Part shown: positions 14,544 through 56,702 of the stretch, piece by piece
Position numbering within the stretch: the first letter of the stretch is position 1
How the letters are laid out: every line of letters begins with the position of its first letter
DNA from: Eledone cirrhosa
Lineage: Eukaryota
Assembly (NCBI GenBank): GCA_964016885.1
Contig: OZ024745.1
Location: forward strand, 90,458,001-90,522,000
DNA: 64,000 nucleotides
Direction of reading: 5' to 3'
The notes under the pieces: model-generated
What the model was told of the DNA's origin: nothing
What the model saw: the letters and a program-made list of their open reading frames with translations, nothing else
Databases searched by the model: none
Made by a program: the position numbers and the translations under genes

Positions 14544-14545
14544 AA

Positions 14546-14631: not shown

Positions 14632-16094
14632 TTGTTGACACTGTCCGTATTTTCAGCAGTGATATATGTATGCAGTTTGGTATTGGTAAATGTGGAATCA
14701 TTGTGATGAAGAGGGGTAGGTTGAGCAGAAGTAACGGGATCCAGATACCAACAGGTGAGATGATAAAGGAAATTGACTCTGAGGAAGGATACAAGTATTT
14801 GGGCGTTCTGGAGGCTGATGGCATAAAGAACAAAAAAATGAAGGAATTGTTAAGAACTGAATACATTCGGAGAGTAAGGAGCGTATTGAAGTCACATCTG
14901 AACAGCAGAAATGCCATAAGCGCAGTAAATTCCCGAGCTGTGTCTATTATTAGGTACAGTGCGGGAATTCTGAGATGGAATGTTGCTGAACAAAAAGAAA
15001 TGGATAGGAAGACTAGGAAGCTATTGACTATCTACAACATGTTCCACAAGAGGAGTGATGTCGATAGACTCTACCTAAGGAGATCTGAGGGTGGAAGAGG
15101 TCTTATCAGCATAGAGGACTGTGTTCAGATGGAGAAAAACAACCTATACAAATACGTGACCTATAGTAAGGAGCCAATGCTCAGAACTGTACTGAAGGAG
15201 GGGACAGTAGGCCAGGGGATGTCCAAGGAGGAAATAACATCAAGGAGGAAGAGCAGCCTTAAGGGAAAATCCCCACATAGTACCTTCTTTGAGAAAACTG
15301 AATTTAGAGATCCACAGACATGGAACTGGTTGAGAAGAGGAGACCTCAAAAAGGCTACAGAAGGAATGCTAATGGCTGCGCAGGAGCAGGCCCTCAAAAC
15401 GAAGTGGTTGAAGCACCATATCTACAAGGAGGAGGCTAGCCCACTGTGCAGGATCTGTGGAGAGAGAGAGGAGACTGTGGCTCACATTGTGTCCGAGTGT
15501 AAACACCTAGCCCAGACCCACTATAAGGGCTGGAGACACGATGTGATGGGCAGGGTGATCCACTGGCACCTGTGCAAAGTAAACAATCTACCACATTCTG
15601 AGAAATGGTATGAGCATAGGCCAGAGGCGGTGATGGAGAACAGTCAGGTGAAGGTGCTGTGGGATTTTAGGATACAGACGGACAAAAAACTGGAACACAA
15701 TAGACCTGACCTGGTGGTTGTGGACAAAGAAAAAAGATCGTGCCTGATTGTGGATGTGGCCTGCCCGTTCGACACGAGAGTGCAAGAGAAGGAGAGGGAG
15801 AAAATTAACCGATACCAGGACCTAAAGTGGGAGGTGAAAAGGATTTGGAACTGCCATGAAGTCAAAGTGATCCCGATTGTCATAGGCGCACTGGGGACTA
15901 TCTCCAAAGGTTTCCAGGGATGGTTAAAGAAAATCGGCCCCTTCACGCTTTTTGGAACGCTTCAAAAGGCATGCTTGCTTGGAACAGCAAGAACCCTCCG
16001 ATACGTCCTGAATATCTGAGGCTGCAGGTAGTGGCTTGATATTCAATCCAACGGACTTTCCAGTTAACCAACATCAATGACTGAGATTCAAGGA
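14632..16094 (+). mobile_element. Family A copy A5 (5'-truncated)
   Basis: Starts VDTVRIFSSD and is open to the stop at 16019; (TAA)n flanks. Confidence 0.92.
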
Positions 16095-19016: not shown

Positions 19017-19156
19017 GTACATCACAAGTCTAAACACTAAGGATGCATGTGTGAATATGTGTGTTCTTTCTTGAACATGGCGGACCTTGTTGTCTCTTGA
19101 GGTCACTGGTTGTGACTTGGTGATAACTCGTATAAACATAAAGCAAGATAAATGCA
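16121..19156 (+). mobile_element. R4/Dong-type RLE retrotransposon, family B, copy B1 (5'-truncated, remaining ORF open)
   Basis: Distinct protein (HLFYMDD, CRVCKKQPETIDHIISMC, RHD, NRPDII) with its own 3' UTR and a (TAA)n tail. Confidence 0.9.
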
Positions 19157-19182
19157 AATAATAATAATAATAATAATAATAA

Positions 19183-22100: not shown

Positions 22101-23717
22101 CTGTTGTTTGTCCTTGCCCTGATGCCCTTGACCATTATGCTGCGAAAAGTGAGAGCAGGATACAAGTTGGGAAGGGGAGAGCTTACCATCAATCACCTCC
22201 TCTTCATGGACGATCTTAAGCTCTTCGGGAAAAGTGAGAAGGAGTTGGATGTGCTTGTTGACACTGTCCGTATTTTCAGCAGTGATATATGTATGCAGTT
22301 TGGTATTGGTAAATGTGGAGTCATTGTGATGAAGAGGGGTAGGTTGAGCAGAAGTAACGGGATCCAGATACCAACAGGTGAGATGATAAAGGAAATTGAC
22401 TCTGAGGAAGGATACAAGTATTTGGGCGTTCTGGAGGCTGATGGCATAAAGAACAAAAAAATGAAGGAATTGTTAAGAACTGAATACATTCGGAGAGTAA
22501 GGAGCGTATTGAAGTCACATCTGAACAGCAGAAATGCCATAAGCGCAGTAAATTCCCGAGCTGTGTCTATTATTAGGTACAGTGCGGGAATTCTGAGATG
22601 GAATGTTGCTGAACAGAAAGAAATGGATAGGAAGACTAGGAAGCTATTGACTATCTACAACATGTTCCACAAGAGGAGTGATGTCGATAGACTCTACCTA
22701 AGGAGATCTGAGGGTGGAAGAGGTCTTATCAGCATAGAGGACTGTGTTCGGATGGAGAAAAACAACCTATACAAATACGTGACCTATAGTAAGGAGCCAA
22801 TGCTCAGAACTGTACTGAAGGAGGGGACAGTAGGCCAGGGGATGTCCAGGGAAGAAATAACATCAAGGAGGAAGAGCAGCCTTAAGGGAAAACCCCTTCA
22901 TAGTACCTTCTTTGAGAAAACTGAATTTAGAGATCCACAGACATGGAACTGGTTGAGAAGAGGAGACCTCAAAAAGGCTACAGAAGGAATGCTAATGGCT
23001 GCGCAGGAGCAGGCCCTCAAAACGAAGTGGTTGAAGCACCATATCTACAAGGACGAGGCTAGCCCACTGTGCAGGATCTGTGGAGAGAGAGAGGAGACTG
23101 TGGCTCACATTGTGTCCGAGTGTAAACACCTAGCCCAGACCCACTATAAGGGCTGGAGACACGATGTGATGGGCAGGGTGATCCACTGGCACCTGTGCAA
23201 AGTAAACAATCTACCACATTCTGAGAAATGGTATGAGCATAGGCCAGAGGCGGTGATGGAGAACAATCAGGTGAAGGTGCTGTGGGATTTTAGGATACAG
23301 ACGGACAAAAAACTGGAACACAATAGACCTGACCTGGTGGTTGTGGACAAAGAAAAAAGATCGTGCCTGATTGTGGATGTGGCCTGCCCGTTCGACACGA
23401 GAGTGCAAGAGAAGGAGAGGGAGAAAATTAACCGATACCAGGACCTAAAGTGGGAGGTGAAAAGGATTTGGAACTGCCATGAAGTCAAAGTGATCCCGAT
23501 TGTCATAGGCGCACTGGGGACTATCTCCAAAAGTTTCCAGGGATGGTTAAAGAAAATCGGCCCCTTCACGCTTTTTGGAACGCTTCAAAAGGCATGCTTG
23601 CTTGGAACAGCAAGAACCCTCCGATACGTCCTGAATATCTGAGGCTGCAGGTAGTGGCTTGATATTCAATCCAACGGACTTTCCAATTAACCAACATCAA
23701 TGACTGAGATTCAGGGA
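19183..23717 (+). mobile_element. Family A copy A6, full-length intact element (~4.5 kb, ~1.07-kb 5' UTR)
   Basis: 5' end shared with A4; single uninterrupted ORF; (TAA)n at both ends. Confidence 0.95.
20250..23642 (+). CDS. Single-ORF polyprotein: N-terminal R4-type (Myb-like) region, reverse transcriptase, CCHC knuckle, restriction-like endonuclease (1130 aa)
   Basis: RTNWTKELNRTVMQCY; KSPGPDG; YRPITCL; QKGC; IDYRKAFD; GIFQGDSLSPLLF; HLLFMDD; CRICGEREETVAHIVSEC; RHD; RPDL..VDVACP; KINRY. Confidence 0.95.
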   Translation: MKTRTSCDRLSPNRCPLAQQQEPDCQPNTADVGGRRRRKGARTNWTKELNRTVMQCYLKSNPKERGYRRRMHNIWNEIGLFKLDEQKLAGQARVIRTNGWISELELEELSRENGLEMAGVVCQTSEPVGNDGEEVLRTEEPPEADNDLSTEINNTWNRDAATEEMNADGLGQDSVDILNLVVDELNNESGRPMNLRFVDRKKLKETTAKVNKVIPYLEARSLHQCNNILRATANTVRKLLGIKARGNNRQERAEPWWKKRLSGQIGEMRNDIGKLESLLNGTLKNIGTKNRLEIKYKTRSKKLNIIIEELKQRIVAKSAKIRRYENRVSQYKQNRMFDNNQKMLFGQLEGKERGNDLIPGAEQTKTFWRGIWEQDVRHNAQAGWIETVQREIGEQAQQQTDLSITVETLKGQAKKLTNWKSPGPDGVQGYWIKHLTSLHPKLTAMFNDCLVSGEVPEWLTKGTIVLIMKDRIKGNDATNYRPITCLPVMWKLLTSIVSEEIYHHLHTNNLLPDEQKGCRKKSCGTKDQLLIDKMVMGNCRRRHTDLAMGWIDYRKAFDMVPHSWITKSLEIFRVADNIRQLLGRSMGSWETELTSTGVSLGSVKIKRGIFQGDSLSPLLFVLALMPLTIMLRKVRAGYKLGRGELTINHLLFMDDLKLFGKSEKELDVLVDTVRIFSSDICMQFGIGKCGVIVMKRGRLSRSNGIQIPTGEMIKEIDSEEGYKYLGVLEADGIKNKKMKELLRTEYIRRVRSVLKSHLNSRNAISAVNSRAVSIIRYSAGILRWNVAEQKEMDRKTRKLLTIYNMFHKRSDVDRLYLRRSEGGRGLISIEDCVRMEKNNLYKYVTYSKEPMLRTVLKEGTVGQGMSREEITSRRKSSLKGKPLHSTFFEKTEFRDPQTWNWLRRGDLKKATEGMLMAAQEQALKTKWLKHHIYKDEASPLCRICGEREETVAHIVSECKHLAQTHYKGWRHDVMGRVIHWHLCKVNNLPHSEKWYEHRPEAVMENNQVKVLWDFRIQTDKKLEHNRPDLVVVDKEKRSCLIVDVACPFDTRVQEKEREKINRYQDLKWEVKRIWNCHEVKVIPIVIGALGTISKSFQGWLKKIGPFTLFGTLQKACLLGTARTLRYVLNI

Positions 23718-23755: not shown

Positions 23756-26700
23756 CACTTCGGAGCTGGAGACCTCCCATAACCGGAATACTCCTACTGT
23801 TGGCCCTCCATGCTCACCACCAAGAAATCCAAAGAAAAAGAGAGAAAAATGGTAAAGGGAAGATAATAAAGAAGTCCTTGAGGCTTTCTACACTGCCATG
23901 TACTACCCATCAAATACATCGAATACAGAACAGACATATATCAACTGGAAAAAGAAACATCCCGAAAACAGAGGCTATATTGACAGTAACAAACTAGCCA
24001 ATATACGAAGAAATATTGTAAGAAAAAAGTTACTAACTGATATGGAAATTGATCAGATCAAGCTATTAGCACAAAGTCAGCGAAGGGAAAATGAAACATG
24101 TGTCAGTGAAAACGAGGTAAACTGTAACACTTCGAACCCCAGGGTTGGGGCGGAATCACTGGCAACAGAACAAATTAAAGAAAGGATCGAAAAAGTGGAG
24201 GGAGTTCATGCTCAGGATGAAACTCCAAATGAAAATAATGAGATCGTAAATGATAAAGAAATGAATGAGAATTAACTTGCCAACTTGAAGGATGAAATTA
24301 TGATCGAATGGATGAAAATGAAAGAATCTGACATGGGGCAACGAGACACCCTCCCTAAGATCCAGAACTTCAAACAGAACCAAAAGATAATACACAAGAC
24401 TAACATAATTCTCAAAAACATTATCATCACAAACAAACTAAACATTACTGATTTAAATCATCTCTATTATGCATCGGCTAAAGTCACCACTCACTTATGT
24501 GGAGTGAAGATGAAAAAACAAAGGAATTCCCACAAGAAATCTACTTGGCAAGAGAACATCAATCGCCAAATAAACCTTCTCCGATCTGACATAGAAATTT
24601 TAACAAACTATAAAGTAGGTGAACATGTTAAACAAACTAAACTTAGAAAATTGAAAAAAAAGTACAGTATAAAATCAACATGTGACATAGACATGCTGAT
24701 AGAAATAATTAAGCAAAAAGTGTCGGCCAAAGCTGCTCGTATAAGGCGCTTTGAAAAACGATCTAGATTCTATAAGGACAATAATATGTTCAAAAACAAC
24801 CAAAGAAACTTCTACAGAAAAATTGGTAAGTCAACAATAACTGCTAAATCAATACCACCCAAGGAGGAAGTGCAAGAATTCTGGGAAAAGATCTGGGCCG
24901 AAGAAAAAGTTCATAACATACATGCCCCATGGATAGACAGACAAATGAAAGATACAGCTCACCTTGAGGAACAAATATGGGAAAATATAACAGTTGAACA
25001 GTTGCGCTTGGCTCTAAGAAAAACCAGCAAATGGAAATCTCCAGGAAAAGACAAAAATACAAAACTTTTGGATAAATGCCTTCACAGAGTCTCATGAGCT
25101 GTTAGCCCAACTTTACAATGAAATAGTTACGGAGCCAGAAAAGATACCATCATGGCTAGTTAACGGCATTACATTCCTGCTTCCGAAGAATGATGAGACA
25201 AACAATCCCAAAAATTACAGACCGATAACTTGCTTGACCACAATGTATAAAATTTTAACATCAGTCCTAACTGAATACACATATGACCACCTGATAACAA
25301 ATGACCTATTTCCCATTGAGCAGAAAGGGTGTAAACGAGGCTCATATGGCTGTAAGGATCAGCTTCTGGTTAACAAAATGATACTGGAAGATTGTCATAA
25401 TAGACACAAAAATCTATCGATTGCTTGGATAGATTATAAAAAAGCATTCGATAGTTTGCCACACAGTTGGATTGAAAAATGTTTAGAGATTTTCAAAATA
25501 TCCCCCGTTGTCAGGAGGTTTTTGTCATTCACAATGAAGACATGGAAAACGACACTCCTTTTGAATAGTGAAACAAAATCACTGGAAGCTGGAGAAGTTA
25601 ATATTAATTGTGGAATTTTTCAGGGTGACTCTTTATCACCGCTTTTATTCTGCATCGCACTTATACCATTAAGTAAAATGCTCAATGAAACAAAACATGG
25701 ATATAAAGTCTATGACAAAACCATTAATCACCTGTTCTACATGGATGACCTGAAACTATTTGCAAAAAATGATGAACAATTGCAAGGGCTATTATCCACT
25801 GTGGAGCAGTTCAGTGATGACATTAAAATGGAGTTTGGACTAGATAAATGCGCCAAAGCAACGTTCACCAGAGGAAAGCTGCTGAAGAGTTCAGACATTA
25901 ATCTTGATCGGGGGAACGTGATAAGAGAACTTGATCAAGAAAAAACTTACAAATATCTAGGTGTTTGTGAAGGAGACGGAATCAAGCACTCGACAATGAG
26001 GGAAAGGATAAGGAAGGAATGTTACCGCAGAGTCAGAGCAATCTTAAGAACGGAATTGAATGCAAGGAATAGGATCGATGCCATAAACACGCTTGCCATA
26101 CCAGTAGTAACCTACAGTTACAATGCCATCAACTGGTCAAGCACAGAGATCCGTAGGCTCGATACAAAAATTCGAAAATTCTTAACCATGCGCAGAATGC
26201 ATCACCCTAAGGCAGATATAGATAGAATATATCTCCCTAGGAAAGAAGGAGGACGTGGGTTAATCCAGTTAGACATTGCGTTGAAAACTGCAACAATTGG
26301 ATTATCTACATATCTAAGGGAATCACATGATTGGATGATCAAACTCGTTTTGAAACACGAAAGCATCAAAAGATCATATTCCATTACAAAAGATGCACAA
26401 AGATACAGTAATGGACTACAAATTTCAGAAGTCCCATTTACTGCTGAAATGGAAAACACAGAAAAAGCAAAGCAGGTAAAAGTAACTGCAAAGAAAGAAC
26501 TGCTACAGAAACTGGCTAAGAAATGGCAAGAAAAGCCTCTGTATGGAAAATACCCAGAGCGAGCTAACAATCCTGATGTTGACAAAACTTTAACCCATCA
26601 GTGGTTGGCATCCTCTGGACTGAAATCGGAGACTGAAGGACTGATTATATCAGCACAAGATCAGTGTCTGCCAACAAAAAATTACCAAGCCAACATAATA

Positions 26701-27430
26701 AAAAATGGATGCAGCCCATTATGCCGTGTATGCAAAAAACAACCAGAGACCATTGACCATATAATTTCAATGTGCAGTCCTATAGCTCCAACCGAATACC
26801 TAAACAGGCATGACAGAGCTGCACAATACATACATTGGATAATGTGCAAGCATTTTGACCTGCCCCATCAAAAGAATTGGTGGGAGCATCAACCACTCCC
26901 ATACTTGAAAAAGATCACATCTCAATCTTGTGGAGCTTTAGCATCCAAACAGACCGAAAAATAGATGCAAATAGACCTGATATAATATTGAAGGACTTTA
27001 AAAAGAGGGTATGCCTGCTAATTGATGTGTCTGTTCCAATAGACCAGAATGTATCTATAAAAACATTTGAAAAATTGAGCAAGTATAAGGACCTGGAGAT
27101 AGAAATTGGAAAAATGTGGAAATTGAGAACTAAAACAATACCAGTGGTTGTAGGCGCTCTGGGAATGATACCTAAGGGGTCTAATGATTACTTATCGCAG
27201 ATCCCAGGAAACCCGCGTATAGGAGAAATACAAAAGATAGTACTAATGGGAACTGCCCATAGACTAAGGAAGATACTGTCAATATAAGTACATCACAAGT
27301 CTAAACACTAAAGATGCATGTGTGAGTATGTATGTTCTTCCTTGAACATGGCGGACCTTGTTGTCTCTTGAGGTCACTGGTTGTGACTTGGTGATAACTC
27401 GAATGAACATAAAGCAAGATAAATGCAACT

Positions 27431-27432
<2 letters not shown>
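23756..27432 (+). mobile_element. Family B copy B2 (longer 5' end, nonsense codons and frameshifts)
   Basis: Very similar to B1 over the shared length. Extra N-terminus KKREKW*REDNKEVLEAFYTAMYY; ORF fragments span 23898-27287. Confidence 0.9.
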
Positions 27433-27491
<59 letters not shown>

Positions 27492-27772
27492 TTTCTTTAT
27501 TGGCCACAAGGGCTGACATCAAGAAAAACATCACAGACTGAACAGGACGGTACGATGTGGGTTTTGTACGTGTAAATATTTTTATTATTTATATAAGAAA
27601 AGAAAAAAGACATAAAACATATATATATATAAACAATAAAATGAAAATTGAAACAATGAAAAATTCCCCAATAGGGGGAAACCTCCGAGGGTTACTCGTG
27701 GCGAAAACCACACAAAAGACCACGGCCACCCTGACTACCAGGGCAAGCGCCCTCTCTCAATTTTTCCATCTC

Positions 27773-30700
27773 TCAAACTACAGACGTATATTCAGAGTTC
27801 ACTCGGACCATTCTCGCTACATTCAGCCACCTTTCAACAAACTTGCTAGAAAGCAGCACTTGCCTCTCCACCCTGATTTTCCTCTTCAAGTGACACTTGA
27901 AAAAGTTAATCAGGGATTCGCCGAAGAGGAAAGTGTTTGTCTTTAATCCTTTTAACCTTGTCCACCACACAATCTCTTTCGCCATGGCCACCAGGCAGAT
28001 GAAAACCGCCTGCCCTTCCTCCTCAAAGGAAGACGGCGAGACCATCTGCACAATGGACTCAGTCGACAACCGGATCAGTCCCACACGTGACAGCAACTGT
28101 TCGACATAGCTCCACAAGTCAGCAATGCTCGGGCACTGAACGAGTGCGTGCACAACGGTTTCGTCGCTATGCGCGCATCTCGGACAGGCTCGGCTGACGG
28201 CACTTCCGTGCCTGTAGAGTTTATCTCGAACCGGCAGCGCTCCCCGGTAGCACTGCCAGGCCAGGGATTTTTGGAAGTTATCCATAGGCCCCGGGCTGAA
28301 AGTTCTCCGGAAGAGAGCAAGCAGCTGATCTTCTTCGACGCCCAGGATCTCTCCGAGAACGTCGTCGCTCTTCCCCTCCACTAGTCCTCTATAGAACGCC
28401 GAGGTGGATGTTCCACCGATACTGGTGCCCAACTGGGAGAGGGCAGTGAGCGCCTGGAGACATTCCAGTTTCCAAGCGCTATCCCTCGGTCTTTTTCTGA
28501 CCCAGGACTGCAGCTCCGTCAAGGAGACGAGCTGTGGGAAAATGTACCTGGCGAACGGCGACCACATCCGTTCACCATCAAGGAAGCACCAGAGATGTCG
28601 CAGCCTCAGCGCATGTTTGTGCATCATCAGCCACGGCATGCCCAGTCCTCCACGCAACAGCAGATGGATCGTCTGACCATGGGAGCGCGTCCTTTCCACA
28701 AAAAGCGGAAGAGGAGGCGCTCCATTTTGGTGAGAGTTGAGCTGGAGCAAGGGACGATGGTGAGGCGGTAGCAGATGACGGATGCGATGTACGCATTCGC
28801 CACTTCCGCCTGGCCTTTCAGGGACAGCTTCCTCTCAGCCCATTTCTGGGTGAGGGAGGCCACCCTCCTCGTCACCTCGTTCCAGTTTTTCTCCATCTGG
28901 AGGTCCGGTCCGAACCAGACCCCGAGCAATTTAACCGGTCCGCCCGTCCAACGCCCCACGACGCTGTCGGACGGCATGGACTTGTCTCTCCAGGTGCCTA
29001 GCTGCAAGCCCACCGACTTTTCCTGGTTTATCTTTGCTCCTGTCACCGTTTCGTATTCCTTGAGAGCGGTGCCGAGCATCTGGACGTGTCTGGTGCTCGA
29101 CACCACCACGGTGACGTCGTCAGCGTAAGCCGACTCGGATTTCCCGCATCCTAGTTCGCGTGGGACGCCACTCATCGCCTCCAGTTTGTGCAGTAACGGC
29201 TCGAGAGCCAATACGTACAAGAGGGACGAGAGGGGACAACCCTGGCGGACTGAGCGCATGATGCTGAACGGCTGCGACAGGTGACCGTTCACCCTCACAA
29301 CTGAGCAGATGTCGCTGTACATTGCTTCGATCCAACGCCTGAAAACGGGTCCGAAACCGGCTGCCTCGAGGACCGCCGCCAGGTACCGATGGTCGACCCT
29401 ATCGAATGCTTTGGATTGATCCAAGTTGATCAGGGCCCCACCCTTTCCAGGTTCCTTAACCACCCTCTCTATGATGTATCGCATGAGGTGGAGGTTGTCG
29501 TGTATGGATCTGTCCGGGATGGCGCATGTCTGCGCCTTTCCCACCAGACCCTTGACGACAAGCGCCAACCTCGTTGCTAACACCTTGGCCAAAATCTTGA
29601 AATGCGTTTAGCAGGGTTATGGGCCTGAAATTATCAATAACATCCCCCTTGTTCGGGTCTTTTCTCAGCAGCGCCACTGCTCCCCGGCTCACAAAACTGG
29701 GAATGCTCCCGTTCTGCTCCCAGTTGCAGTAGACGTCTGCCAAGAGGTCAACGAACAAGTCTGGCATAAATGCATAAAGCTCGTAGGGCAGACCATCTAA
29801 ACCTGGCGATTTACCTCTTGTGCAGTTAGCCATCGCTTCCCCTATTTCACCGGCTGTTGTTGGCTTTTCGCAAAACTGTGCTGCGGTCGTCGAGAGCCGA
29901 GGTAGTCCGTCGAGGTATGCACTGAAGTCCATGTCCCGATCCGGGTCGCCGCAGCTCCCGAACAGTTCAGCAAAGTGCTGCTGAAAAACTTCACACATCC
30001 GCTCGGGTTCGAGCATCACGCACCCATTTTGGTCAGACAAAGACCGAATTGTGGCTTTATTGCCACATCGCGCCTCTGCCACCCGGGCCCATTGGACGGC
30101 TTTTGTCCCCTCGTGTTTCAGAACACGCGCTCTAGCTCTGACAACGCAGCCTTCGTGTTTTGCGTTGAAGAATTGGTCGAGTGCCAATCTCGCCGCAAGC
30201 ACGTCGGTTGCGATGCCTGTCCTAAACGCCTCTTCTAGCTTTCTGACTAGCTCTCCCTCTACTCTATTTTCCTCTATCACTACTCCTTTGCTAAACCTAA
30301 TCGACTCTACTTTAATTGCCCTTTTCAGGGCGAACGACCACCTGTTGTTGACGACCGCTCCCGTCAACGCCCGCTTAACTAATACTCTAATCCGGTCTCT
30401 GTAGGCCTTGCGCGCCGGGAAAGACGCGTTCAGCTTCCAGTAACCAGGCCCTTGTCTATGATGTCTGTCTATGTCGATCTCACAGATCACAAATTTGTGG
30501 TCTGTGTAGTCGACTATTTTAAATTGTGGACAACTTATACTAGCCTTATCTAGTTCCCTGCAGAATACCCTATCTAGAAACGATCTGGATGACCCGATAC
30601 GGTTTGTCCATGTCTACATTGGCACATTCGGGTGATTCAGTCGATACCTGTCAGACAGTTCAAAACGTCTGAGCAGGTTGGTGAGGCTCTTGCACCCTCC

Positions 30701-31177
30701 TCCCCTATCCACTAGCCCCACACGATCCCAGCGTGCATCCAAGATACCGTTCCAGTCGCCCACTAACACTAAAGAGCGGGACGTTCCAAGAAAGGTCTCT
30801 AGACGTCTGAAGAAATCTGGCCGTCCTGCCCCTGTTGGGGCGTAGACGGCTACTAGCCTGAAAGCATTGCCTTCACTGCCGGTCACGTCCAGCACCACCG
30901 ACTTACCTTCTGGGTCCAGGAAGATAGCCCGTATCGCGAGATCCAAGCCTCTCCGAAAAAGGACGGCAACCCCTCCCCCCGATCCTGAACGGCTGGGAGA
31001 TGCGTATACATCGTAGCCGCCGAAGATCGGTATGAAGGATCGTGCCTCGGAGATTCTGGTTTCACTGATGGCCACCACATCTATGTTTAGTGACCTGAGG
31101 TCATTGAGCAGGTGACCCTGCTTCCAAGATGACCCCAGGCCACGTGCATTTATACTGCCTATTCTGAGTACAGCCAT
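27773..31177 (-). pseudogene. ORF2: AP-endonuclease + reverse transcriptase + C-terminal Cys motif (frameshifted)
   Basis: SINARGL, ISETR, VYAP, GDWN; GKSPGLDGLP, FRPITLLN, DQSKAFDRVDH, VRQGCPLS, AYADD; CPRC..ETVVHALVQC. Confidence 0.88.
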
Positions 31178-31209
31178 GTTGGATGAGAAACGGGGCAAAT
31201 GACAAAGGG

Positions 31210-33060
31210 TCACTTACCTTGTTCGTGTGGTGAAGGGACAGTAGAACCGTCCCTTTCGCTGGTCATGGGTGTTTCCAAGAGGATATCAGTGTATATCCTC
31301 TTGGTAACCGTCCCTCTAAAGTCTCCAACTGCATTGGGGAATTTTTGTTTTAAAGGTTTGTACTGTTCTAATGAGATGTCGATGATGCTTATGTTTGTCG
31401 GGAGAGTTCTTGGTGTTGGTGGGGTGTAGTAATTTTTTTCCGTGATGTCTGTGTGTTGCTTTATATATTTTATGAGTTCTTTTTTTGCTATGTTTATGGC
31501 TGTGTACTTTTTTTTTGGGGGGGGGTGATTTTGTTGCCGTTTTCTTCTTGTTGCTGTTTGGTGTGTGTGTCTTGTTCTGTTTGCGTTGTTGGTGTTTGTG
31601 GTGGTGTTGCTGTAAGTTTCCTTGCTGCCTTTACCCCTCTTTGTATGCCTTCGCTTTTGGAGGGTGAATCTAAGGTTTTTTTTGTTTTTTGTTTTTTGTG
31701 GCAGACTGTTTGCCACGTCACTCCCGCCTCAAACTCCATGTCGGATTCTGTGACGTCTGTGAGGGGTATGTGCTCCACGGCTGTTGGTGGTGGTAGTGGA
31801 GCCCTCTTCGGCAATGTTGTTGCTGGTGTAGCTATTTCAAATGTAGCTATTGGTGTTGCCGCTACTGATGATGCTGCTTTAGTTATCCGTGGCCTTGGTA
31901 CGGGTGCTACGGACGTTGCCCTCCTACTCACCGTGGAAGGGGCTTCTTCGTTTGTTGCCTGTCCTGCTCTTGGTAGCAGCGGACCAGGTATTGGAAGGAG
32001 AGGGGCCCTCTTCGGTGTCTTCTACGGCAAAAGGCCCTGAGGTGACCTTTCGACCCACAGAGATAACATTTTGGCCGTCTTCCTTCTACACTTATAGGGA
32101 GTTGGAGTCCTTCCTCAAAGTCTATGATATCGGGGATAGCCTCGATACATTCCTGGTCAGTTTGTATAAGCATTTGCATGCCTATACCTGACCAGTTCTC
32201 TCTCCCTATTTTTTCTACTTGCAGCATGGTCGCCCTGTTCTCAATTCCAGCAAGGACAGACGCGGCCAGCCAAGGTATGGGCACGTTGGGTGGTACCTGG
32301 GTCACTTTGACCCTCACAATTTTCTGCCCGCAGTAGGAGGGCACCAAGACTAACTCTTCACTCTTTAGGGTTTCCAAAGAGTGAGACTTTGCCTGCTGGG
32401 GGGTGGCGAAAAGTACGTCTACTGTGGCGTACTTTCTGCCTCGGGTGATGTGGGTTTTGCGTGCCCAGACGCACCCCAAGGCCTTTTGGATTTGAGCCTC
32501 CGTGGCTCTCTCCACTCGATGTGAGATTTTGCTTACGGTGCGGTAAATCACCGTTCGTAGCTGCTGGTCCTTGAAAAAATCGGGTGGAGGTTTCAGGGAA
32601 ACTCTATTTGCGCTTCTTGTCACCATGGCCCTTGCGACTGCCATCTCCTCCTCTGTGACTAACACTGTCTCGATATTTCGGGCGACACCTGCAAAAGAAG
32701 TGGTCCCTTTTTCAGCAGCAGCTCTATTGCTGCCGCTACTGGTCTTACTGGTGGTGCTGAGGTCGCTATTACAGGTATCAGTGTCATTGTTATTGTTTTC
32801 GCTGGTACAGTTGTTGGTGTTGTTTCGTTGATATTGTTGCTGCTGTTACTGTTATTGTGGCTGTTGTTATTATTGTTGTTTTTGTTGATACTGTTCCTAC
32901 TATTATTGTTGTTGTGGCTGTTGTTATTGTCATTGTTATTGTCGTTCTCGACTTTACCGCTGTTATTTTTGGTGTTGTTGTTGGTGATGTTGTTGGTGTT
33001 ATTGTTGGTGTTATTTGTTAATTTTAAATCTGTAACAATCTTTTTTTTCCTTTGTAATAT
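31210..33060 (-). pseudogene. ORF1 gag-like nucleic-acid-binding protein with zinc knuckle (frameshifted, start approximate)
   Basis: CYLCGSKGHLRAFC knuckle in ORF 31928-32665, flanked by low-complexity T/N/P/Q stretches; lies upstream of ORF2. Confidence 0.7.
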
Positions 33061-33365
33061 TTTCGTTTATATTTACCTCCGCTGGAACGCTGTCTTGTTG
33101 ACATACTGATAAAGTCTCCCTCTCTATGTGTTGTCTGACAGCGCTCTCTCTCTATTTTGTGTTATCCATGTTGAAATTTTTCAAAAAATATTTTTACACA
33201 AATACGAATACGACACCCCGTAAAGGGGTGCCGTATTATTTACTAGTGAACCCCTGTATTAGGTGGGTCACTTCTTCTAAACTTTTATCAAATTTAAAAC
33301 TTGAATAAAAGGTTTAGAACGGTTGAAAAAGACTGGAGGCGATAAGAAGCGTGGCTTCACCAACC

Positions 33366-33411
<46 letters not shown>

Positions 33412-35410
33412 TCCGTTTACAATTGTTTCGCTACTCCACATTATGTTTCTGGATCAAATGATTATAGATCATTATTGATCTGGTTCAGTTGAAGATAATT
33501 AACTTAGGTAAAATTATAGCAGCTCATCGGAACTTCAAAAGGAATATAAATTAAAATTAAGAAAGAATAAGAGAGTATTGAAGTTTGCTTGAAGCATTGT
33601 GGAATAATAAGATATATTTTCTTTAGGTCGTTTTGGAAGCCTCAACAATGCAGATGGGTAATTCTCCGGGTAACATGATCCGGTGGTGAAGAGAGAGATG
33701 TAAGTGAATGTAGAATGAGATGTATGGTGTGTAGAAGAACGTAGGAAAGAGCGTAAAAAATAAAAATAATAACACAAGATAGAGGTACCTTGGGAGAGAT
33801 TTAGTTGTCCCTATATTTCGGATTCACATCCATCAACTGGGGGGTTATCCGGGAGAGGGGTTACCTGTCGGATAGGAGCGATACGTGTCCTCCGCTGTTC
33901 GTTATTTTGAATATCTGAGGTATTCATCAGAGCGCGCGCGCGCGTGAAATGGGGTCGGTCAAGCAGAGGTCGGCGGCCGAAATAGTTATTTTAATTGTGG
34001 GAGTGGGGTGGCGTTAGCTGTCAATCCATTGTATTATCTGCCCGTGTTGGTTTCTGTATTAGCAGTGTTGAATATTGTATTCGTGTGGTGGTGGTAGTAT
34101 TCCCTGCCTGATTGGTGAATGCTACTGTGTGTGTGCGCGCGTGTTGTTGTCACGCTTGTGTGCGTGTGTTGTTGCTTCGTTTGTCTGTATTAGCAGTGTA
34201 GTATATTCGTATGGTGGAATGCTACTGTGTGCGTGTGCGTGTGTTGTTGCCTCGTTTGTTTAAACCAACCACCTCATTTCGCTTCTCTCGGATTTGTTAT
34301 TTATTTGTGGCCCTAGGCGTTTGATCCAAAGTGCTTCCTTTATTCGTAATGTGCCGACGTTTCGTTCCGTCGCTAGCTCTGTAACAATGGGCCTTACGTC
34401 TTTTTTTCCGCATTTGGTTATGTGTTTCCGGAAAGACGAGGTCCTAGTGTTGATGTGCTCCTTGATCCGGATTTGTAGCGGCCGGATTGTGCTACCTATA
34501 TAGTATTGGTTGCATTTGTTACATTCTACCTTATACTCGACGTATGTGCGTAGGCAACAGTTCGTATGGCGCATCGGGCAGTTTCTGAGGGAGCACGCGT
34601 CAGTCGATTTCCCGGGTTTCCTGGAGAGGCATCTTCGCAGAGAGGGGCCTGAGTGGGCCAGATGGATGTCGAGGCCCTCCCTCCGTTTAGCCCTGCGGAT
34701 AGCGTTGGTGGTATTCGCGCCCAGGTGTGGTATTTTAAGGAAGCACTTGCCTTGGGTGTTTCTCTGCTTCTTGCGTCTGGTGTCTCTAATTCTGTTTGTG
34801 AGTTAGGCAGGGTACCCATTCGTCTCCAGCACTTTGAGGAATCGCTTGGAATGGGTGACACCACTCGCGGGATCGCTGCATCTGTTTTTAATTCGCGTGA
34901 TCTCGTTCGTGATGTACTCTCTTTTAGCACTGTTAGGGAGGGTGGACTTGTAGTGGACGAACAGGTCCCTGCATGCTGCCTTGCGGTAGAAGTTGGTGTG
35001 GATCCCTCCCTGTTCCGTGATGTTGATTCGGAAGTCGAGGAGGGCAAGTGACCCGTCGTCGCTGGGGTGTTCAACACTGAAATCAATGTTCTCGTCCGTG
35101 TTGTTGAACGACTCATAGATTTTGTTCGCCATCTCTTGGGAAGATGTGAGGATGAGGATATCGTCCACGTACCTTGAGAAAAAGGCGACGGCGTTGGGTG
35201 ACAGGTGTTGAGTGCCTTGTGCTCGAGGCTGTCCATGTATGAGATCGCTAACACACCCGACAGGCTTGAGCCCATGGGCAGTCTCGAGGTTCACTGGTAT
35301 GTTTGGTCGAGAAATCCTAAGTATGTATTGTCAACGACGATGGATAGGAGTTGGTGGATGTCAGTGGTAGTGAGCCCGAAGCAGTATAGGTCGGTAGATT
35401 GGCCGCGTTA
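33366..35410 (-). mobile_element. Penelope-like element (RT + C-terminal GIY-YIG), 5'-truncated, frameshifted
   Basis: PMGSSLSGVLA, FSRYVDDILI, LALLDFRI, YRKA; YKVECNKCNQYYIGSTIRPLQIRIKEH. Stop at 34260; 3' UTR carries a hammerhead. Confidence 0.88.
33415..33533 (-). ncRNA. Hammerhead ribozyme motif in PLE pLTR (variant core CCGATGA, long stem II)
   Basis: gtt-CCGATGA-gctgct...agtagc-GAAAC-aatt-GTA-aac; palindromic stem III ACAATTGT. Confidence 0.6.
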
Positions 35411-35938
35411 AAGAAAGAATGTTACATGAATGTAATGTTCCATATATTGGTATTTCACTATGGTGTCCTGGGTATATCTATTGACTGCCATAGTCGAGCA
35501 ATATTCTTCTGTCGAGGCTGCATTGTGTGAGATCTGCCTATGGGTAACAAGATGGCAGCCAATGGACATATTTACCTTACTAATTAGAGGGTGTTTTCAG
35601 GAGAAGTAATCCTCGAGAAATTAGAAATTGTGGGTAGTTTATAGTTAAGAAGTGCTAATTTTTTAATTGAGAGACAATGTAATTGAGAGACAATGTAAGG
35701 GAGGTAACTTATAATTATCTAAGTTAGCTATAACTATTTAACTTATTAGCTATAAGTAAAAATGGGACTAGATGACTATGTTGGGTCAAATATTCTGTTG
35801 GCGAAGGAATTAGCCCTTCGATGTTGACAGCTAATGGTTACCTCCGTTCTATCATTAATCGGTAGAGGTCGTGATAGAGTTATGTAATATGCTTCAGTAA
35901 GACAGAGGTCACAAGAGTTTCTTCGTCCATTGAACGGT

Positions 35939-36085
35939 TGGAGTAGCGAAACAATTGTAAATGGACATTATTAATATTATTATTTTTATTATTATTATTC
36001 TCTACATTCCTTACATTAAACTAAAACTATGTTGACAATCTTTTAATAATGTCTTCCTTGAGAAATTTGCTTAACTAATTAATAT
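35939..36085 (+). repeat. Inverted copy of the PLE terminal repeat containing the uninterrupted (ATT)n empty site
   Basis: Equals the reverse complement of [3181-3277] + (TAA)n + [33411-33438], apart from a short deletion and a few substitutions. Confidence 0.8.
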
Positions 36086-36253
36086 TTCTAGCTCTGTGCA
36101 CCTAACCTCTGCATGAACCCAGCCATCTAGCCGCCTTCCACTGCATATTGCACATTAAGCACATGTCTTTACGCTTCGGCCTCTAACTAATTCACCAATC
36201 TCTCTTCTCCTCTCCTATCTCCATCTCCCTCTTTAAGATTGGTTACGCTTGAA

Positions 36254-36305
<52 letters not shown>

Positions 36306-36319
36306 TTGGCAGACCAAAC

Positions 36320-36782
36320 ACATACTGAATTCATCCGCCAAAACTAAGGGTTGCCCCCCTTGTTGAGCCCCACGTGGGCTTTGATAACGGTCAGTCTTTC
36401 GCTTGGCACTTGAACTAAAAGTCTCTTGAGAAAGTGACTTCCTTGTTCAATCATCTTACCAAAAGCTTAACATTATTTGTCTAAGCGGACAGTACTTGAT
36501 TTAGGAGTTGCAGAAACCCAAATGCTGGATATTTTACCAACCTTCCAGGGGTCCGGGTATAATTTTTCAATCATATTTTATTTGTTTGACCCTAATTACT
36601 TGGTCGTTTCTATGGCTGTGCAGATAATGGTTTAACCATCGTCTCAGTGTGTTTGGCCTTTTAACTTATGTTGTAGCTCTAGTTCATTAGCTTCTATGGA
36701 GCGCTTGCCACACATCTCGGAAGTTGTTTTTCGCTAATTTCCAATAGCCAAAATACGATTCTCGCTAATTTATATTTGTATA
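36320..36782 (-). repeat. Inverted copy of the unclassified repeat at 2392-2850
   Basis: catactgaattcatccgcc...gattctcgctaatttatatttg is the reverse complement of 2392-2850, with scattered substitutions. Confidence 0.75.
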
Positions 36783-37075: not shown

Positions 37076-37400
37076 AATAAATACAAATAAATAATCGAGA
37101 ATCGAAATCTCAGCTCACGAAATCACGAAACACAATCTTCGAAATGTGTGGCAGAGGGCTCAATAGTTTGGGTAAACCAGAGCTATAACTATCGTTAAAA
37201 TACCAACACATAGAGACAATGCTTAAAATCATTCGCACAGCCGAAAAACCGACCAGGAAAATTCGGTCAAACAAATAATAAATTAATAAATTAATAAATT
37301 AAATGAATGTAAAATCTTACCCGGACCCGCTAGAAAGATGTTAAAATCTAGCTTTATGGGTTTCTACAGTTCCATAATCAATTACCGTCGACCCACATAA
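37075..37400 (+). repeat. Diverged third copy of the unclassified repeat
   Basis: cgagaatcg...cgaaatgtgtggcag..ctcaat..aaccagagcta..gagacaatg..cgcacagcc..ggtcaaacaaataa is colinear with 2400-2700. Confidence 0.6.
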
Positions 37401-38769: not shown

Positions 38770-40161
38770 GTGCTGAAAAGTACTTAGCTTAAAGGGTAGA
38801 GCTGTTACCATTACAGGGGAGGTAGAACCGCTGCAATAAGTGTGTGAATCTGAGAGGGGAATATGTTGAATAACATCATAATTAACTGACACTCCTATAT
38901 TTCATTTTAACTGATCCTCCTGTGTTTTCTTTTAACTGATCCTCCTATATTTTCTTTTAACTGATCCTCCTATATTTTCTTTTAACTGATCCTCCTATAT
39001 TCTTTTTTAACCGATCCTCCAATATTTTCTTTTAACTGATCCTCCTATATTTTCTTTTAACTGATCCTCCTATATTTTCTTTTAACTGATCCTCCTATAT
39101 TTTCTTTTAACTGATCCTCCAATATTTTCTTTTAACTGATCCTCCTATATTTTCTTTTAACTGATCCTCCTATATTTTCTTTTAACTGATCCTCCTATAT
39201 TTTCTTTTAACTGATCCTCCTATATTTTCTTTTCACTGTCCTCCTATATTTTCTTTTAACTGATCCTCCTATATTCTTTTTTAACTGATCCTCCAATATT
39301 TTCTTTTAACTGATCCTCCTATATTTTCTTTTAACTGATCCTCCTATATTCTTTTTTAACTGATCCTCCAATATTTTCTTTTAACTGATCCTCCTATATT
39401 TTCTTTTAACTGATCCTCCTATATTTTCTTTTAACTGATCCTCCTATATTTTCTTTTAACTGATCCTCCAATATTTTCTTTTAACTGATCCTCCTATATT
39501 TTCTTTTCACTGTCCTCCTATATTTTCTTTTAACTGATCCTCCTATATTCTTTTTTAACTGATCCTCCAATATTTTCTTTTAACTGATCCTCCTATATTT
39601 TCTTTTAACTGATCCTCCTATATTCTTTTTTAACTGATCCTCCAATATTTTCTTTTAACTGATCCTCCTATATTTTCTTTTAACTGATCCTCCTATATTT
39701 TCTTTTAACTGATCCTCCTATATTTTCTTTTAACTGATCCTCCAATATTTTCTTTTAACTGATCCTCCTATATTTTCTTTTCACTGTCCTCCTATATTTT
39801 CTTTTAACTGATCCTCCTATATTCTTTTTTAACTGATCCTCCAATATTTTCTTTTAACTGATCCTCCTATATTTTCTTTTAACTGATCCTCCTATATTCT
39901 TTTTTAACTGATCCTCCAATATTTTCTTTTAACTGATCCTCCTATATTTTCTTTTAACTGATCCTCCTATATTTTCTTTTAACTGATCCTCCTATATTTT
40001 CTTTTAACTGATCCTCCTATATTCTTTTTTAACTGATCCTCCAATATTTTCTTTTAACTGATCCTCCTATATTTTCTTTTAACTGATCCTCCTATATTTT
40101 CTTTTAACTGATCCTACTGTATTTTCTTTTACCCAAAGCCAGGAACCTTTCAACACCCTTG
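38770..40161 (-). mobile_element. Tc1/mariner-type non-autonomous element (MITE) with internal minisatellite, copy 1 (left end approximate)
   Basis: Reverse-complement homologue of 48927-50242; TIR end ...gccaggaacctttcaacacccttg followed by TA. Confidence 0.75.
38884..40130. repeat. 25-bp minisatellite (AACTGATCCTCCTATATTTTCTTTT), ~50 units, with a 274-bp higher-order repeat
   Basis: Period 25. The variant unit CACTGTCC recurs at 39234, 39508 and 39782. Confidence 0.95.
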
Positions 40162-41614: not shown

Positions 41615-41865
41615 CACATATACATACGTACACACGTACATACATACTACATACATACATACATACATACATACATACATACATACATACATACATACAT
41701 ACATACATACATACATACATACTTAATACATACATACATACATACATACATACATACATGCATACATACATACATACATACATACATACATACATACATA
41801 CATACATACATACATACATACATACATACATACATACATACATGCTTAATACATACATATATACA
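41615..41865. repeat. (TACA)n microsatellite, target of family C
   Basis: Seen directly. Confidence 0.95.
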
Positions 41866-44507
41866 TGCTTAATAAAAGATTCAGACGAAACCAAACATCA
41901 GTCTATAGAGATATGAAGGGCAAAATAATAAGTGTCACTGAGGCCCCATCCCAGAAAGACATAGATTCCTTTTGGAGAAAAATATGGGGTGAAAAGAAGA
42001 ATTTCAACCAAGATGCAGTGTGGCTAAGAGAAATCCAAAAGAACTATTGCTCCTACACTACAACAAAAACATACGAAATAAGTGAGGGTACCCTTGAGAC
42101 TGTGATAGGAAAACTCCAAGATAAGAAAACACCAGGAAGAGACATGATTGTCGGCTACTGGTACAAAAAACTAATATTCAATCGGAGGTATCTTACTGAC
42201 CTCTACCAACAAGTTCTTAAGGGAGATACACTTATACCAGAATGGTTGACATTAGCACAAACGTTACTGGTCCCCAAGAACAAAGACACCCGCTTGGCAA
42301 AGAGCTACCGACCCATTGCATGCCAGAACCTGATGTATAAGATGTATACAGCCTGCCTCAACCTATTCCGCCAAGATCACTGTGAAGGTGGTAACATCAT
42401 CACAGATGAACAAGCAACTGGAAAGAAAAGGGTTTGGGGATGTGCTGAACAACTCCTAATCAACAGGGCTGCGATGTCGGGGGTGCGACAACTTAGGAGG
42501 AATATGACTACAGTCTGGCTGGACTACAAGAAAGCTTTCGATTCTGTTCCCCACTCTTGGATGATAGAGGCCCTCCAACTTGCTAAAGTCCCAGACATTA
42601 TTGTCAGAGCCACAGAGAGGCTGTCTTCTTCTTGGGCTACTATACTAAGGTTAAAGACAGAGTGGGAGGACTCTATTTTCACTGATAAAATAAAATATTG
42701 CAGGGGTATGTTTCAGGGGGACAGTCTCTCTGTGATATTGTTCATCTTGTCATTAAACCCCTTGTCCTTTCTGCTCAAGAAATGTGAGGGATACATCATT
42801 GGCTCACAGGGGGACAGAGATACGAACCTAACACATAACTTCTTTGTGGACGATCTGAAACTCTATGCCAAGAACATGGATGGGATGAACAAAAATCTTG
42901 ACCTGGTTACAACGTTCTCAAAGGATATAGGAATGGAGTTTGGCCAAGATAAATGCTCATACATGACTGTAAAGCGGGGAAAAACAACGACCCAATCTAG
43001 CAACATTGTCATCAATGGTCTAACTGTTTCACCGATATCTGGTGAGGACTGCTACAGATACCTGGGGATAGATGACAACATATCCTATAATGGTATCTGT
43101 AATAAAGAACGCGTAACCAGGGAATACTACACCCGATTAAGAAAGATCTGGTCATCGGAACTCTCTGCGCAAAACAAAACAGTGGCTCACAGTGTGTTTG
43201 CTGTGCCTGTCCTAACACCAACGTTTGGAATACTCAATTGGACGATGGACGAAGTCCGAGCGGTTGATGTTGGAACTCGAGGGGTGCTGAACAACACCGT
43301 AGGCTTCCACGTCAACAGTGACATAGACCGCCTTTACTTGAAACGTAAGCAGGGAGGCAGAGGCCTAACATCAGTCTAGACAACATTTGAATGTCGCATC
43401 ATATCTCTCCGACAACATCTACGAACTTCGAAGCGTAGGAGCCTGCTTCTCGAGCAAGTCTATCTGCATGAAACAGATAAGATCGTGAGAGTTGGGAAGG
43501 AACTCCTTGAGAGATATTCCCTGTGTGATAATCAAAAACTCACACTCAGGGATGTCGCTCAGCAGTATCGCAGTGAATCCATGGATGAAAAACTGCATGC
43601 CTATCAGCAAAAGATCATGCATGGATATGTTGCCAGGAAGCTTCAGAGTGAGAGTAATATAGATAAGGAAAGTAGTCTATCTTGGACCAACAACCGCTAT
43701 ATTGGCTCCCACTTTGAAGGATACGCTTTTGCAATCCAAGAACAGGAGATTAGCACGAAATACCTGATTCACAAAAGAGATAGGGATGCAGGCAAAACAC
43801 CTAGATGTGATAACAAGTGCAGACTCTGCAGCTGCAGACTCATCAGCAGACTCAAGTGCAGACTCATCAGCAGCTGCCCAGGGATGTCATCGCGGTACTA
43901 TCTGCCTGTGAGGCATGATGTGGTGGCCGAAACACTGTACAATGCAGTTCGTGAAAAGGATAGCCCCGATGGTAAACACATTAAAAGCTACAACAGTGTG
44001 GAAGACATCCATGTACATAATATGGGGGAGTACTGGTGGAATGTTCCAGTAAAAACCCCAATAGAATGCAGGCATAACAGACCAGATATTATGATATGGG
44101 ACAGGGAGAAGAAAACATGCACAGTAGTGGAAATTAGCTGCCCAGCAGATGCCAATATAATATCAAAGATTAGTGAAAAGGAGAATATTTATGCAGAACT
44201 GATGACAAATCTGCAGATACTCCACCCTGATTACACCTTCAGATTTATGCCTGTGATTATTGGGGCACTGGGGTATGTTAGTAACTGCCTCAATACAAAT
44301 CTTGAGAAGCTAGGCTTCACAGGAACAGAAAGAACACAACTAGTTAGGAAATTACAAGTACAATCCATTAATGGAACAGTAAAAATATGCATACATACAT
44401 ATCTACCTAGTTGATGTGTAAATTCCAATGAGAGAGTCTTGTGTCTATGTTAGAAACCGACTCTCTCTCTATTGGTAAAACTTTGTGAAATTATAAAACC
44501 AGAAGAA
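41866..44507 (+). mobile_element. R4/Dong-type RLE retrotransposon, family C, copy C1 (5'-truncated, nonsense at 43377, internal rearrangements)
   Basis: YRPIAC, WLDYKKAFDSVPH, GMFQGDSLS, FFVDDLKL, CRLC, RHD, NRPDIMIWD..VEISCP. Bounded by (TACA)n. Confidence 0.88.
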
Positions 44508-48926: not shown

Positions 48927-50242
48927 CGAGGGGTGCTCAAAGGTTCCTGGCTTTGGGTAAAAGAAAATACAGGAGGATCGGTTAAAAGAAAATACAGGAG
49001 GATCGGTTAAAAGAAAATACAGGAGGATCGGTTAAAAGAAAATACAGGAGGGTCGGTTAAAAGAAAATACAGGAGGATCGGTTAAAAGAAAATACAGGAG
49101 GGTCGGTTAAAAGAAAATACAGGAGGGTCGGTTAAAAGAAAATACAGGAGGATCGGTTAAAAGAAAATACAGGAGGATCGGTTAAAAGAAAATACAGGAG
49201 GGTCGGTTAAAAGAAAATACAGGAGGGTCGGTTAAAAGAAAATACAGGAGGGTCGGTTAAAAGAAAATACAGGAGGATCGGTTAAAAGAAAATACAGGAG
49301 GATCGGTTAAAAGAAAATACAGGAGGGTCGGTTAAAAGAAAATACAGGAGGATCGGTTAAAAGAAAATACAGGAGGGTCGGTTAAAAGAAAATACAGGAG
49401 GATCTGTTAAAAGAAAATACAGGAGGATCGGTTAAAAGAAAATACAGGAGGGTCGGTTAAAAGAAAATACAGGAGGGTCGGTTAAAAGAAAATACAGGAG
49501 GGTCGGTTAAAAGAAAATACAGGAGGATCGGTTAAAAGAAAATACAGGAGGATCGGTTAAAAGAAAATACAGGAGGGTCGGTTAAAAGAAAATACAGGAG
49601 GGTCGGTTAAAAGAAAATACAGGAGGATCGGTTAAAAGAAAATACAGGAGGGTCGGTTAAAAGAAAATACAGGAGGATCGGTTAAAAGAAAATACAGGAG
49701 GATCGGTTAAAAGAAAATACAGGAGGGTCGGTTAAAAGAAAATACAGGAGGGTCGGTTAAAAGAAAATACAGGAGGGTCGGTTAAAAGAAAATACAGGAG
49801 GGTCGGTTAAAAGAAAATACAGGAGGGTCGGTTAAAAGAAAATACAGGAGGATCGGTTAAAAGAAAATACAGGAGGGTCGGTTAAAAGAAAATACAGGAG
49901 GGTCGGTTAAAAGAAAATACAGGAGGATCGGTTAAAAGAAAATACAGGAGGGTCGGTTAAAAGAAAATACAGGAGGATCTGTTAAAAGAAAATACAGGAG
50001 GATCTGTTAAAAGAAAATACAGGAGGATCTGTTAAAAGAAAATACAGGAGGATCTGTTAAAAGAAAATACAGGAGGGTTGGTTAAAAGAAAATACAGGAG
50101 GATCAGTTAATTATGATTTTATTCAACATATTCTCCTCTCAAATTCACACACTTATTGCAGCGATCCTACCTCCCATGTAAAGGTAACAGCTCTACCCCT
50201 TCACGATAGCCTTTAAGCCAGGAACTTTTCAATACTTCCACG
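48927..50242 (+). mobile_element. Tc1/mariner-type MITE with internal minisatellite, copy 2
   Basis: TA-cgaggggtgctcaaaggttcctggctt ... aagccaggaacttttcaatacttccacg-TA (imperfect TIRs, TA duplication). Confidence 0.8.
48959..50110. repeat. 25-bp minisatellite (AAAAGAAAATACAGGAGGRTCGGTT), ~46 units
   Basis: Period 25; two main variants GGATCGG/GGGTCGG, with GGATCTG near the end. Confidence 0.95.
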
Positions 50243-56221: not shown

Positions 56222-56671
56222 GGCGGCTGCCAACTCGTTTTCGAGTACGGCCACTACTTTATATCCATGTAGGAGAACCCCTACCGAAGCGCTGAACAAG
56301 TGTGACTTTTTAGTCCAGCCAGCGACTTGAAAACTCTGGTACAAACACTACACTTGTGACAATTATTGACACATAGTGCTGGGCCCATGGTACCATGTGA
56401 TGACAAGTGCAGAGGGATCTCCAGATACAAAGCAATGCCTGTGCCGTGAAGCTTTTATAGTGAGCAAAGGCACTGCGCAAAGCCACTCCCACTCTCTTAA
56501 TCAAGATGATATTTACCGAAAAGAAGAACAAGTCAACATCATTGGATACCATCAGGGTTGCAGGTGTTATATCAGAGTTTTCCTTCTCCTAGAATTCTGC
56601 CTTGACAAAGACTAAGGGGTCATCTCTCCCGGTGATTTTGGATGGCCATTGACTTAAGAGCTCCTTTGCCC

Positions 56672-56673
<2 letters not shown>
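56221..56673 (-). mobile_element. Non-autonomous RTE-like element D, copy D1 (5'-truncated), (TGTA)n tail
   Basis: Near-identical to 60361-60815; terminal hairpin next to the repeat. Confidence 0.7.

Positions 56674-56702
<29 letters not shown>

Follow-up and report, generated by a model that had tools for sequence, protein, structure and literature searches.

Results

The window, by which we mean the whole stretch of 64,000 nucleotides that was analysed, carries a Penelope-like element (PLE) of a family that we call family A. This host element spans 3182 to 36256 between two (TA)n tracts, and one of its terminal repeats (pLTRs) is split by 30,068 bp of other retroelements (3298-33365), bounded by (AAT)7 and (AAT)15 (Table 1). 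The second pLTR retains the unsplit arrangement: the reverse complement of 35939-36085 agrees with the left flank of the insert (3181-3277) in 82/84 aligned bases, apart from 13 bp that are deleted in the 35939 copy, and with the right flank (33411-33438) in 27/28, a 33-bp interrupted tract lying between the two matched halves. A masked self-BLAST of the window recovered these halves at E values of 7e-28 and 4.5e-5, and the repeat common to both copies extends to 36256. In each copy the (ATT)n tract begins 7 nt past the GUA triplet of a hammerhead-like motif (GTA at 35957-35959 on the plus strand; 33420-33418 on the minus strand in the split copy).

Table 1. Positions in the window of the host PLE insertion and of the elements inside it
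Feature	Position	Strand	Basis
(TA)n, left half of host PLE target	3164-3181	.	TRF; family copies end in (TA)n
Family A pLTR beyond (ATT)n, to the family's short end	3182-3276	-	95-99% to L002-L030
(ATT)7, distal half of split pLTR tract	3277-3297	-	
3' fragment (43 bp) of abundant tRNA-type SINE	3298-3340	-	
Five Dong-like RLE LINEs, subfamily A	3395-16093	+	RVT_1; 89-99% mutual identity
Dong-like LINE, subfamily B	16121-19156	+	
Dong-like LINE, subfamily A, open 1141-codon frame	19181-23716	+	
Dong-like LINE, subfamily B	23756-27432	+	
L1-group Tx1-like LINE, 5.9 kb	27490-33365	-	Pfam, translations
(ATT)15, proximal half of split pLTR tract	33366-33410	-	
Type I minimal-hammerhead-like motif (putative)	33411-33533	-	motif counts (155 copies) and folds
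PLE family B, 5'-truncated, RT motif YVDD and GIY-YIG with CCHH	33569-35408	-	
Family A: last 53 codons of endonuclease domain and region 3' of ORF	35409-35941	-	alignment to L289
Inverted 5'-truncated second pLTR: hammerhead 3' half, empty tract 35967-35999, long end 36256	35939-36256	+	
(TA)24, right half of host PLE target	36257-36304	.	TRF

An earlier note on this DNA had stated that the reverse complement of 35939-36085 equals the two flanks with about 33 bp of degenerate TAA between them: both flanks do match, with the 13-bp indel unmentioned and the wording thus slightly overstated. Its placement of the tract inside a PLE pLTR, just past the hammerhead motif, agrees with the conserved continuation found in other copies, and its account of one pLTR as split by a retroelement nest holds. 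The ends of the PLE, described there as a pLTR pair, are indeed terminal repeats, but they form an inverted rather than a direct pair, and the inversion junction at 35939-35941 leaves the 35939 copy with just the 3' half of the hammerhead-like motif. The loose end at 35941 is also present in contigs of a public sample.

The nest consists of ten segments separated by (AAT)n tracts: one SINE fragment, eight Dong-like LINEs and one L1/Tx1-like LINE. The five leading subfamily A copies (3395-4022, 4053-7882, 7949-9538, 9650-14545 and 14618-16093) each end in an (AAT)n tail. For the Dong-like LINEs the top PDB match was to R2 proteins (E 2e-29), and their translations contain a CCHC motif and an RLE-type C-terminus; the designation rests on the RLE-type single ORF and the (TAA)n target rather than on RT trees, (TAA)n targets and TAA tails being given for Dong in the accessible text of PMC3812793. 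The Tx1-like LINE exhibits an ORF1 with a CCHC knuckle, an APE endonuclease, RT, zf-RVT and an (ATT)n tail, with human L1 ORF2p as top PDB match (E 8e-26), and is so named for its ORF1, its ORF2 with APE, RT and zinc finger, its L1-group RT and its target, again rather than from trees. The SINE and the Tx1-like LINE have similar 3' ends, lie on the same strand and both carry ATT tails, which suggests a partnership in which the Tx1-like element may mobilise the SINE.

Between the split pLTR and the remnant of the family A ORF, the RT and GIY-YIG frames at 34263-35330 belong to a second PLE, family B, inserted into the host. Approximately 10 bp are duplicated at the family B/family A junctions, and other family A copies join 33568 straight to 35409, with the same joints occurring in the public contigs (family-level joints, from three runs of one sample). 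Nineteen other copies of the family B segment have their own RT upstream and mostly a (TA)n end downstream. The GIY-YIG frame 34263-34802 was also considered as the host's own and was rejected, since these 19 copies are without family A at either end. Family B shows CCHH and a cysteine-rich linker before GIY-YIG, normally ends in (TA)n and has, around 33800-33850, a degenerate motif resembling a hammerhead; it appears Neptune-like by the motifs given in the accessible part of PMC8557442.

Further repeats were observed around the host insertion. A third repeat family (2391-3163, 36318-36782 and 37132-37389) has a 164-bp direct terminal repeat (2392-2555, 3001-3163) and an inverted copy, 86% alike, just to the right of the host PLE; it is possibly another PLE with pLTRs. 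A 25-bp minisatellite forms inverted arrays of 50 and 46 copies (38882-40131 and 48958-50110) with a common 91-bp flank (38791-38881, 50111-50201), an arrangement similar to the two arms of a foldback element spanning approximately 11 kb. Another RT-encoding family is present as tandem fragments between (TACA)n tracts (41850-44414, 56222-64000) and constitutes a second nest in the window, on a different microsatellite.

The complete hammerhead-like motif is found in the split copy, where the 5' core CCGAUGA (33530-33524) is followed by a 7-bp stem II around an 80-nt insert and then by GAAAC-AAUU-GUA, cleavage being predicted between 33418 and 33417. Among 155 distinct full family A copies, GAAAC-AATT-GTA (the 3' core with its palindromic loop) is present in 138, the stem I GTT/AAC pairing in 137 and the core CCGATGA in 132, the canonical CUGANGA occurring in 7/155; in the two other common variants stem II is mispaired. 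The constrained fold reaches -13.6 kcal/mol compared with -22.4 for the free fold, which places the active fold approximately 9 kcal/mol above the minimum, and Rfam gave no hammerhead match in the window or in 33411-33900. The shape of the motif fits minimal PLE hammerheads, and it is treated here as a putative ribozyme.

In order to follow family A through its own genome (3.0 Gb), 35880-36160 was used as query and returned 2,915 candidates, whilst the 27-mer directly before the tract was matched exactly at 1,758 positions, compared with zero for the same 27-mer reversed as a control. Lists anchored before and after the tract have 42 of 85 sites in common on the same stretch of one chromosome (C1; hand count), an overlap that points to a minimum of about 3,500 sites. 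The tract is a fixed feature of the family, with a median length of 30 bp in 100 consecutive copies. Copy L289 is full-length, with a direct pLTR-ORF-pLTR arrangement; each of its repeats contains the tract, and its start codon lies approximately 360 nt past the cleavage site (313 + 48). Inverted pLTR partners were found in copies L288, L294, L295 and L296. Family A has a short and a long end, 132 (as in L288) and 313 nt past the cleavage site, i.e. a tail of about 180 nt, and (TA)n adjoins the insertion ends of the window copy and of most others.

The host ORF comprises 725-727 codons in L289 and L291, of which the last 53 are retained in the window (35941-35783, minus strand). It contains the RT motifs FDIDS and YRDD and a VY..SYIG domain; Pfam returned a weak GIY-YIG match (E 0.0036, below cut-off) and no RVT_1 match. 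RWK is found in the N-terminal frame of L289 and DKT in L291 and L294; the ORF also contains CNCRYPNAC as linker (CxCX5C; the L291 linker is without two residues), CDLC (CxxC) and CQH (CxH), and CCHH was absent when the host ORF was read by eye. The protein has 113 homologues, and among the 55 long ones RWK is present in 42, DKT in 45, CxCX5C in 42, CxxC in 48 and CxH in 53. With RT followed by GIY-YIG in a single ORF, pLTRs, a hammerhead motif and a tail, family A has the sequence hallmarks of a Penelope-like element, and its motifs, rather than an RT tree, would place it in the Hydra clade, whose diagnostic motifs it carries.

The occupancy of the tract was determined by fetching and classifying 100 consecutive family A sites, all occupancy samples being drawn from a single chromosome (its first 163 Mb). 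Of these tracts, 66 were empty, 27 held a SINE (CI 19-37%), 1 a Dong-like and 0 a Tx1-like element, and 6 were set aside; on inspection the latter comprised 2 diverged empties, 1 local inversion, 1 other short repeat, 1 SINE behind another repeat and 1 site without continuation within 1.5 kb. A further 58 sites, anchored on the other side of the tract (62 minus 4 already counted), gave 38 empty tracts, 8 SINE and 3 Dong cases (two events), the remaining 9 being truncated or other. The earlier note would have been contradicted by copies that do not continue past the tract: 66/100 run uninterrupted into the downstream motif. Its suggestion that the family scatters landing pads for Dong and Tx1 elements holds weakly for Dong and Tx1 (1/100 and 0/100 in this sample), and as the main occupants these two give way to the SINE, an element that the note did not name. 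Outside the window we counted at least three Dong events (L081, and L309 and L350 among the 58 further sites); one Tx1-like 5' end was seen in the tract of L023, a site from a similarity-ranked set. The window is not unique, since a second Dong nest occupies the same tract on C1, another chromosome, with three copies over about 10 kb, after which the pLTR resumes.

Individual sites showed additional features. In this second Dong nest (L081, 7927-8132), a stretch of roughly 80 bp from the hammerhead side of the pLTR is repeated twice at a Dong 5' junction, reflecting either a long target duplication or a template jump. L309 (G000:C1:53852200-53853900) holds a 329-bp Dong 3' fragment between inverted downstream pLTR halves, without the hammerhead, and the tract of L095 (G000:C1:109761163+) is occupied by yet another repeat, approximately 340 bp long and ending in (CAT)n.

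In order to judge whether the SINE is enriched in the tract, ATT runs were scored in 60 arbitrary 10-kb windows (600 kb), to which a second version of the control added the flanks of PLE loci. In the arbitrary windows the SINE adjoined 28/819 runs of two units, 9/50 of three, 2/50 of four to five and 1/10 of six or more; with the flanks added, 10/127 runs of at least four units and 5/26 of six or more (CI 7-39%) were SINE-adjacent. The SINE occupies the pLTR tract (27/100) well more often than runs of at least four units in arbitrary windows (3/60; Fisher p 3.4e-4), whilst the interval for the tract overlaps those of the length-matched class (1/10; 5/26), and the control takes run length on the 3' side only, therefore shifting occupied long tracts into shorter classes and lowering the control value. 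Two of the ten long ATT tracts in arbitrary windows were themselves this pLTR. Enrichment of the SINE over length-matched tracts is not established. About half of 26 SINE junctions have one 3' nick position in common (by eye), one ATT unit inside the tract and three such units ahead of the AAT interruption; this recurrence suggests a preferred nick, and together with 27/100 versus 3/60 it makes some real preference of the SINE possible.

Viewed from the side of the invaders, this pLTR accounts for a small share of insertions. Dong subfamily A has 4,067 exact 3' ends in the genome, and among the first 30, 1 adjoins this pLTR and 19 adjoin another retroelement end (by eye: 9 Tx1-like, 8 Dong-like and 2 SINE). 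For the Tx1-like family, 1,385 exact 3' ends were counted with a pattern that required ATT after them, and 0/30 adjoin the pLTR. For these Dong and Tx1 counts only the immediate 3' neighbour was scored, therefore nests founded in this pLTR are undercounted. Of the 65,958 (ATT)5 ends at which the next base is C, G or T, family A supplies at least 1,962 (3.0%), so that use by Dong (1/30) is approximately proportional to the supply of tracts. The exact 3' 33-mer of the SINE occurs 79,822 times, with 0/30 ends adjoining the pLTR; its presence in 14/100 pLTR sites extrapolates to about 250-500 copies in the genome, i.e. 0.3-0.6% of the SINE. The usual target of the SINE is a short ATTAT(T), with target duplication.

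Discussion

We consider it about 75% probable that the family A tract is an ordinary target that is used passively, with the nest growing on the tails of the newcomers. This reading starts from what is observed: the anatomy of the locus, the constant presence of the tract in the family, the occupancy counts and the ten (AAT)n-separated segments. A PLE with Hydra-clade motifs lies there with (TA)n on either side and its terminal repeats inverted to one another; in both repeats the (ATT)n tract that belongs to the family, of about 30 bp, follows the predicted cleavage site at 7 nt. Retroelements that target ATT/TAA would enter one such tract simply because its sequence matches their target, and the tail of each newcomer would offer a fresh target, upon which the nest could grow to 30 kb. 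Insertion was likely target-primed by the endonuclease of each element, the event order is likely as given, and use of the tract was likely passive, i.e. not selected. The landing-pad role of the tract for Dong and Tx1 is real but small, and likely passive.

A stronger reading would make the pLTR tract a preferred hotspot and founder of nests, where context or transcription draws SINE, Dong and Tx1 elements beyond what tract length explains and the PLE turns (TA)n sites into nest seeds. The excess of SINEs over runs of at least four units, the recurrent nick position, the Dong events at L081, L309 and L350 and the Tx1-like 5' end at L023 all point this way, against which stand the length-matched control (5/26) and the low shares of Dong, Tx1-like and SINE ends at the pLTR. 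The accessible text of PMC4494074 calls a family target-specific when 20% or more of its flanks are the carrier, and all three shares lie far under this value; we thus regard a hotspot as unlikely. The same doubt applies to a wider cascade, in which a (TA)n-targeting Hydra PLE scatters thousands of (ATT)n tracts that act as a true hotspot for the Tx1-driven SINE (more than a quarter occupied, recurring nick) and give rise to a disproportionate share of Dong/Tx1 nests, whilst the carrier is crippled or re-wired by insertions into the 5' leader of the PLE, 7 nt beyond the putative ribozyme site: this is conceivable, although we do not expect it to hold.

Another reading is that occupied pLTRs are not independent insertions, a SINE- or Dong-bearing pLTR having been copied by PLE retrotransposition or duplication, and the 3' junction common to about half of the SINE cases would fit such copying. 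However, the 5' junctions, truncation points and SINE subtypes vary among occupied pLTRs, and sister pLTRs are often occupied singly: L289 carries a SINE in its 5' pLTR only, and L082, L086, L088 and L092 combine one occupied with one empty sister. The SINE insertions therefore appear independent, and copying is largely refuted and very improbable as an explanation. We give even less credence to the (ATT)n being a genomic microsatellite that was hit by the PLE, or to the likeness of the flanks being an assembly artefact. In the accessible parts of the sources, PLEs often target microsatellites (PMC8557442) and a poseidon PLE nicks 5'-ATT-3' in vitro (PMC11167929), but most copies continue with one and the same sequence beyond the tract, which refutes the microsatellite origin, and the real ends of the family are in (TA)n; as for an artefact, substitutions and the 13-bp indel separate the two window copies, and the nested copies, at 89-99% identity, are not exact duplicates.

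That elements target other elements is already known, as the accessible text of PMC4494074 sets out, and no new mechanism is shown here. The literature covered, which excludes Repbase, supplements and most subscription papers, holds no report of a microsatellite or (ATT)n inside a PLE pLTR serving as a target, nor do the accessible parts of 10.64898/2026.07.22.740005, PMC4758252 and PMC4640811. The locus offers a worked example of one mobile element handing targets to others, with the empty site kept 2.6 kb away. Thousands of family A copies of the same sequence make insertion rates countable, and the family may offer a natural yardstick for the way in which ATT-targeting SINEs and LINEs choose their targets. 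With it, a high-copy Hydra-type PLE with an unusual hammerhead-like motif is added to a genome that, by the names of homologues, looks like that of a cephalopod.

Comparison with known systems

For Hydra-clade PLEs, the accessible text of PMC8557442 gives RWK, DKT (not DKG), CxCX5C, the lack of CCHH, and CxxC and CxH around the catalytic E and N. Family A agrees with these PLEs in all of these features and in its C-terminal GIY-YIG, its (TA)n targets, a hammerhead-like motif within the pLTR, an inverted partner with 5' truncation and an optional tail at one end. It differs in the length of the tail, about 180 nt between short and long ends compared with 30-40 nt, and in the 80-nt stem II insert, the CCGAUGA core in 132/155 copies and the (ATT)n inside the pLTR. 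According to the part of PMC11167929 available, a PLE reverse-transcribes from sites downstream of its hammerhead, with cleavage not needed; such a start would explain both the presence of the tract in every copy and the short and long ends. With the minimal metazoan PLE hammerheads described in the accessible text of PMC4209133, the family A motif has in common type I topology, a short stem I, a 7-bp stem II and helix III as a palindromic loop, and it departs from them in its long stem II insert and a U4-to-C change.

The window copies resemble the Dong elements of PMC3812793, as far as its accessible text describes them, in their single ORF with RT and C-terminal CCHC and restriction-like endonuclease, in sense-strand (TAA)n at either end and in tandem nests; the difference is that the first target was here brought by another retroelement. 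A parallel to the system as a whole lies in the accessible part of PMC4494074, where Tx1 is inserted in Tx1D, and SINEU and Tx1-Mar in Mariner-N4_AMi: as with family A, a mobile element provides a site that is entered repeatedly by Tx1-type LINEs and their SINEs. In those systems, however, 13-90% of the SINE copies flank the carrier, compared with less than 1% for family A, whose target, unlike that of these carriers, is a generic simple repeat.
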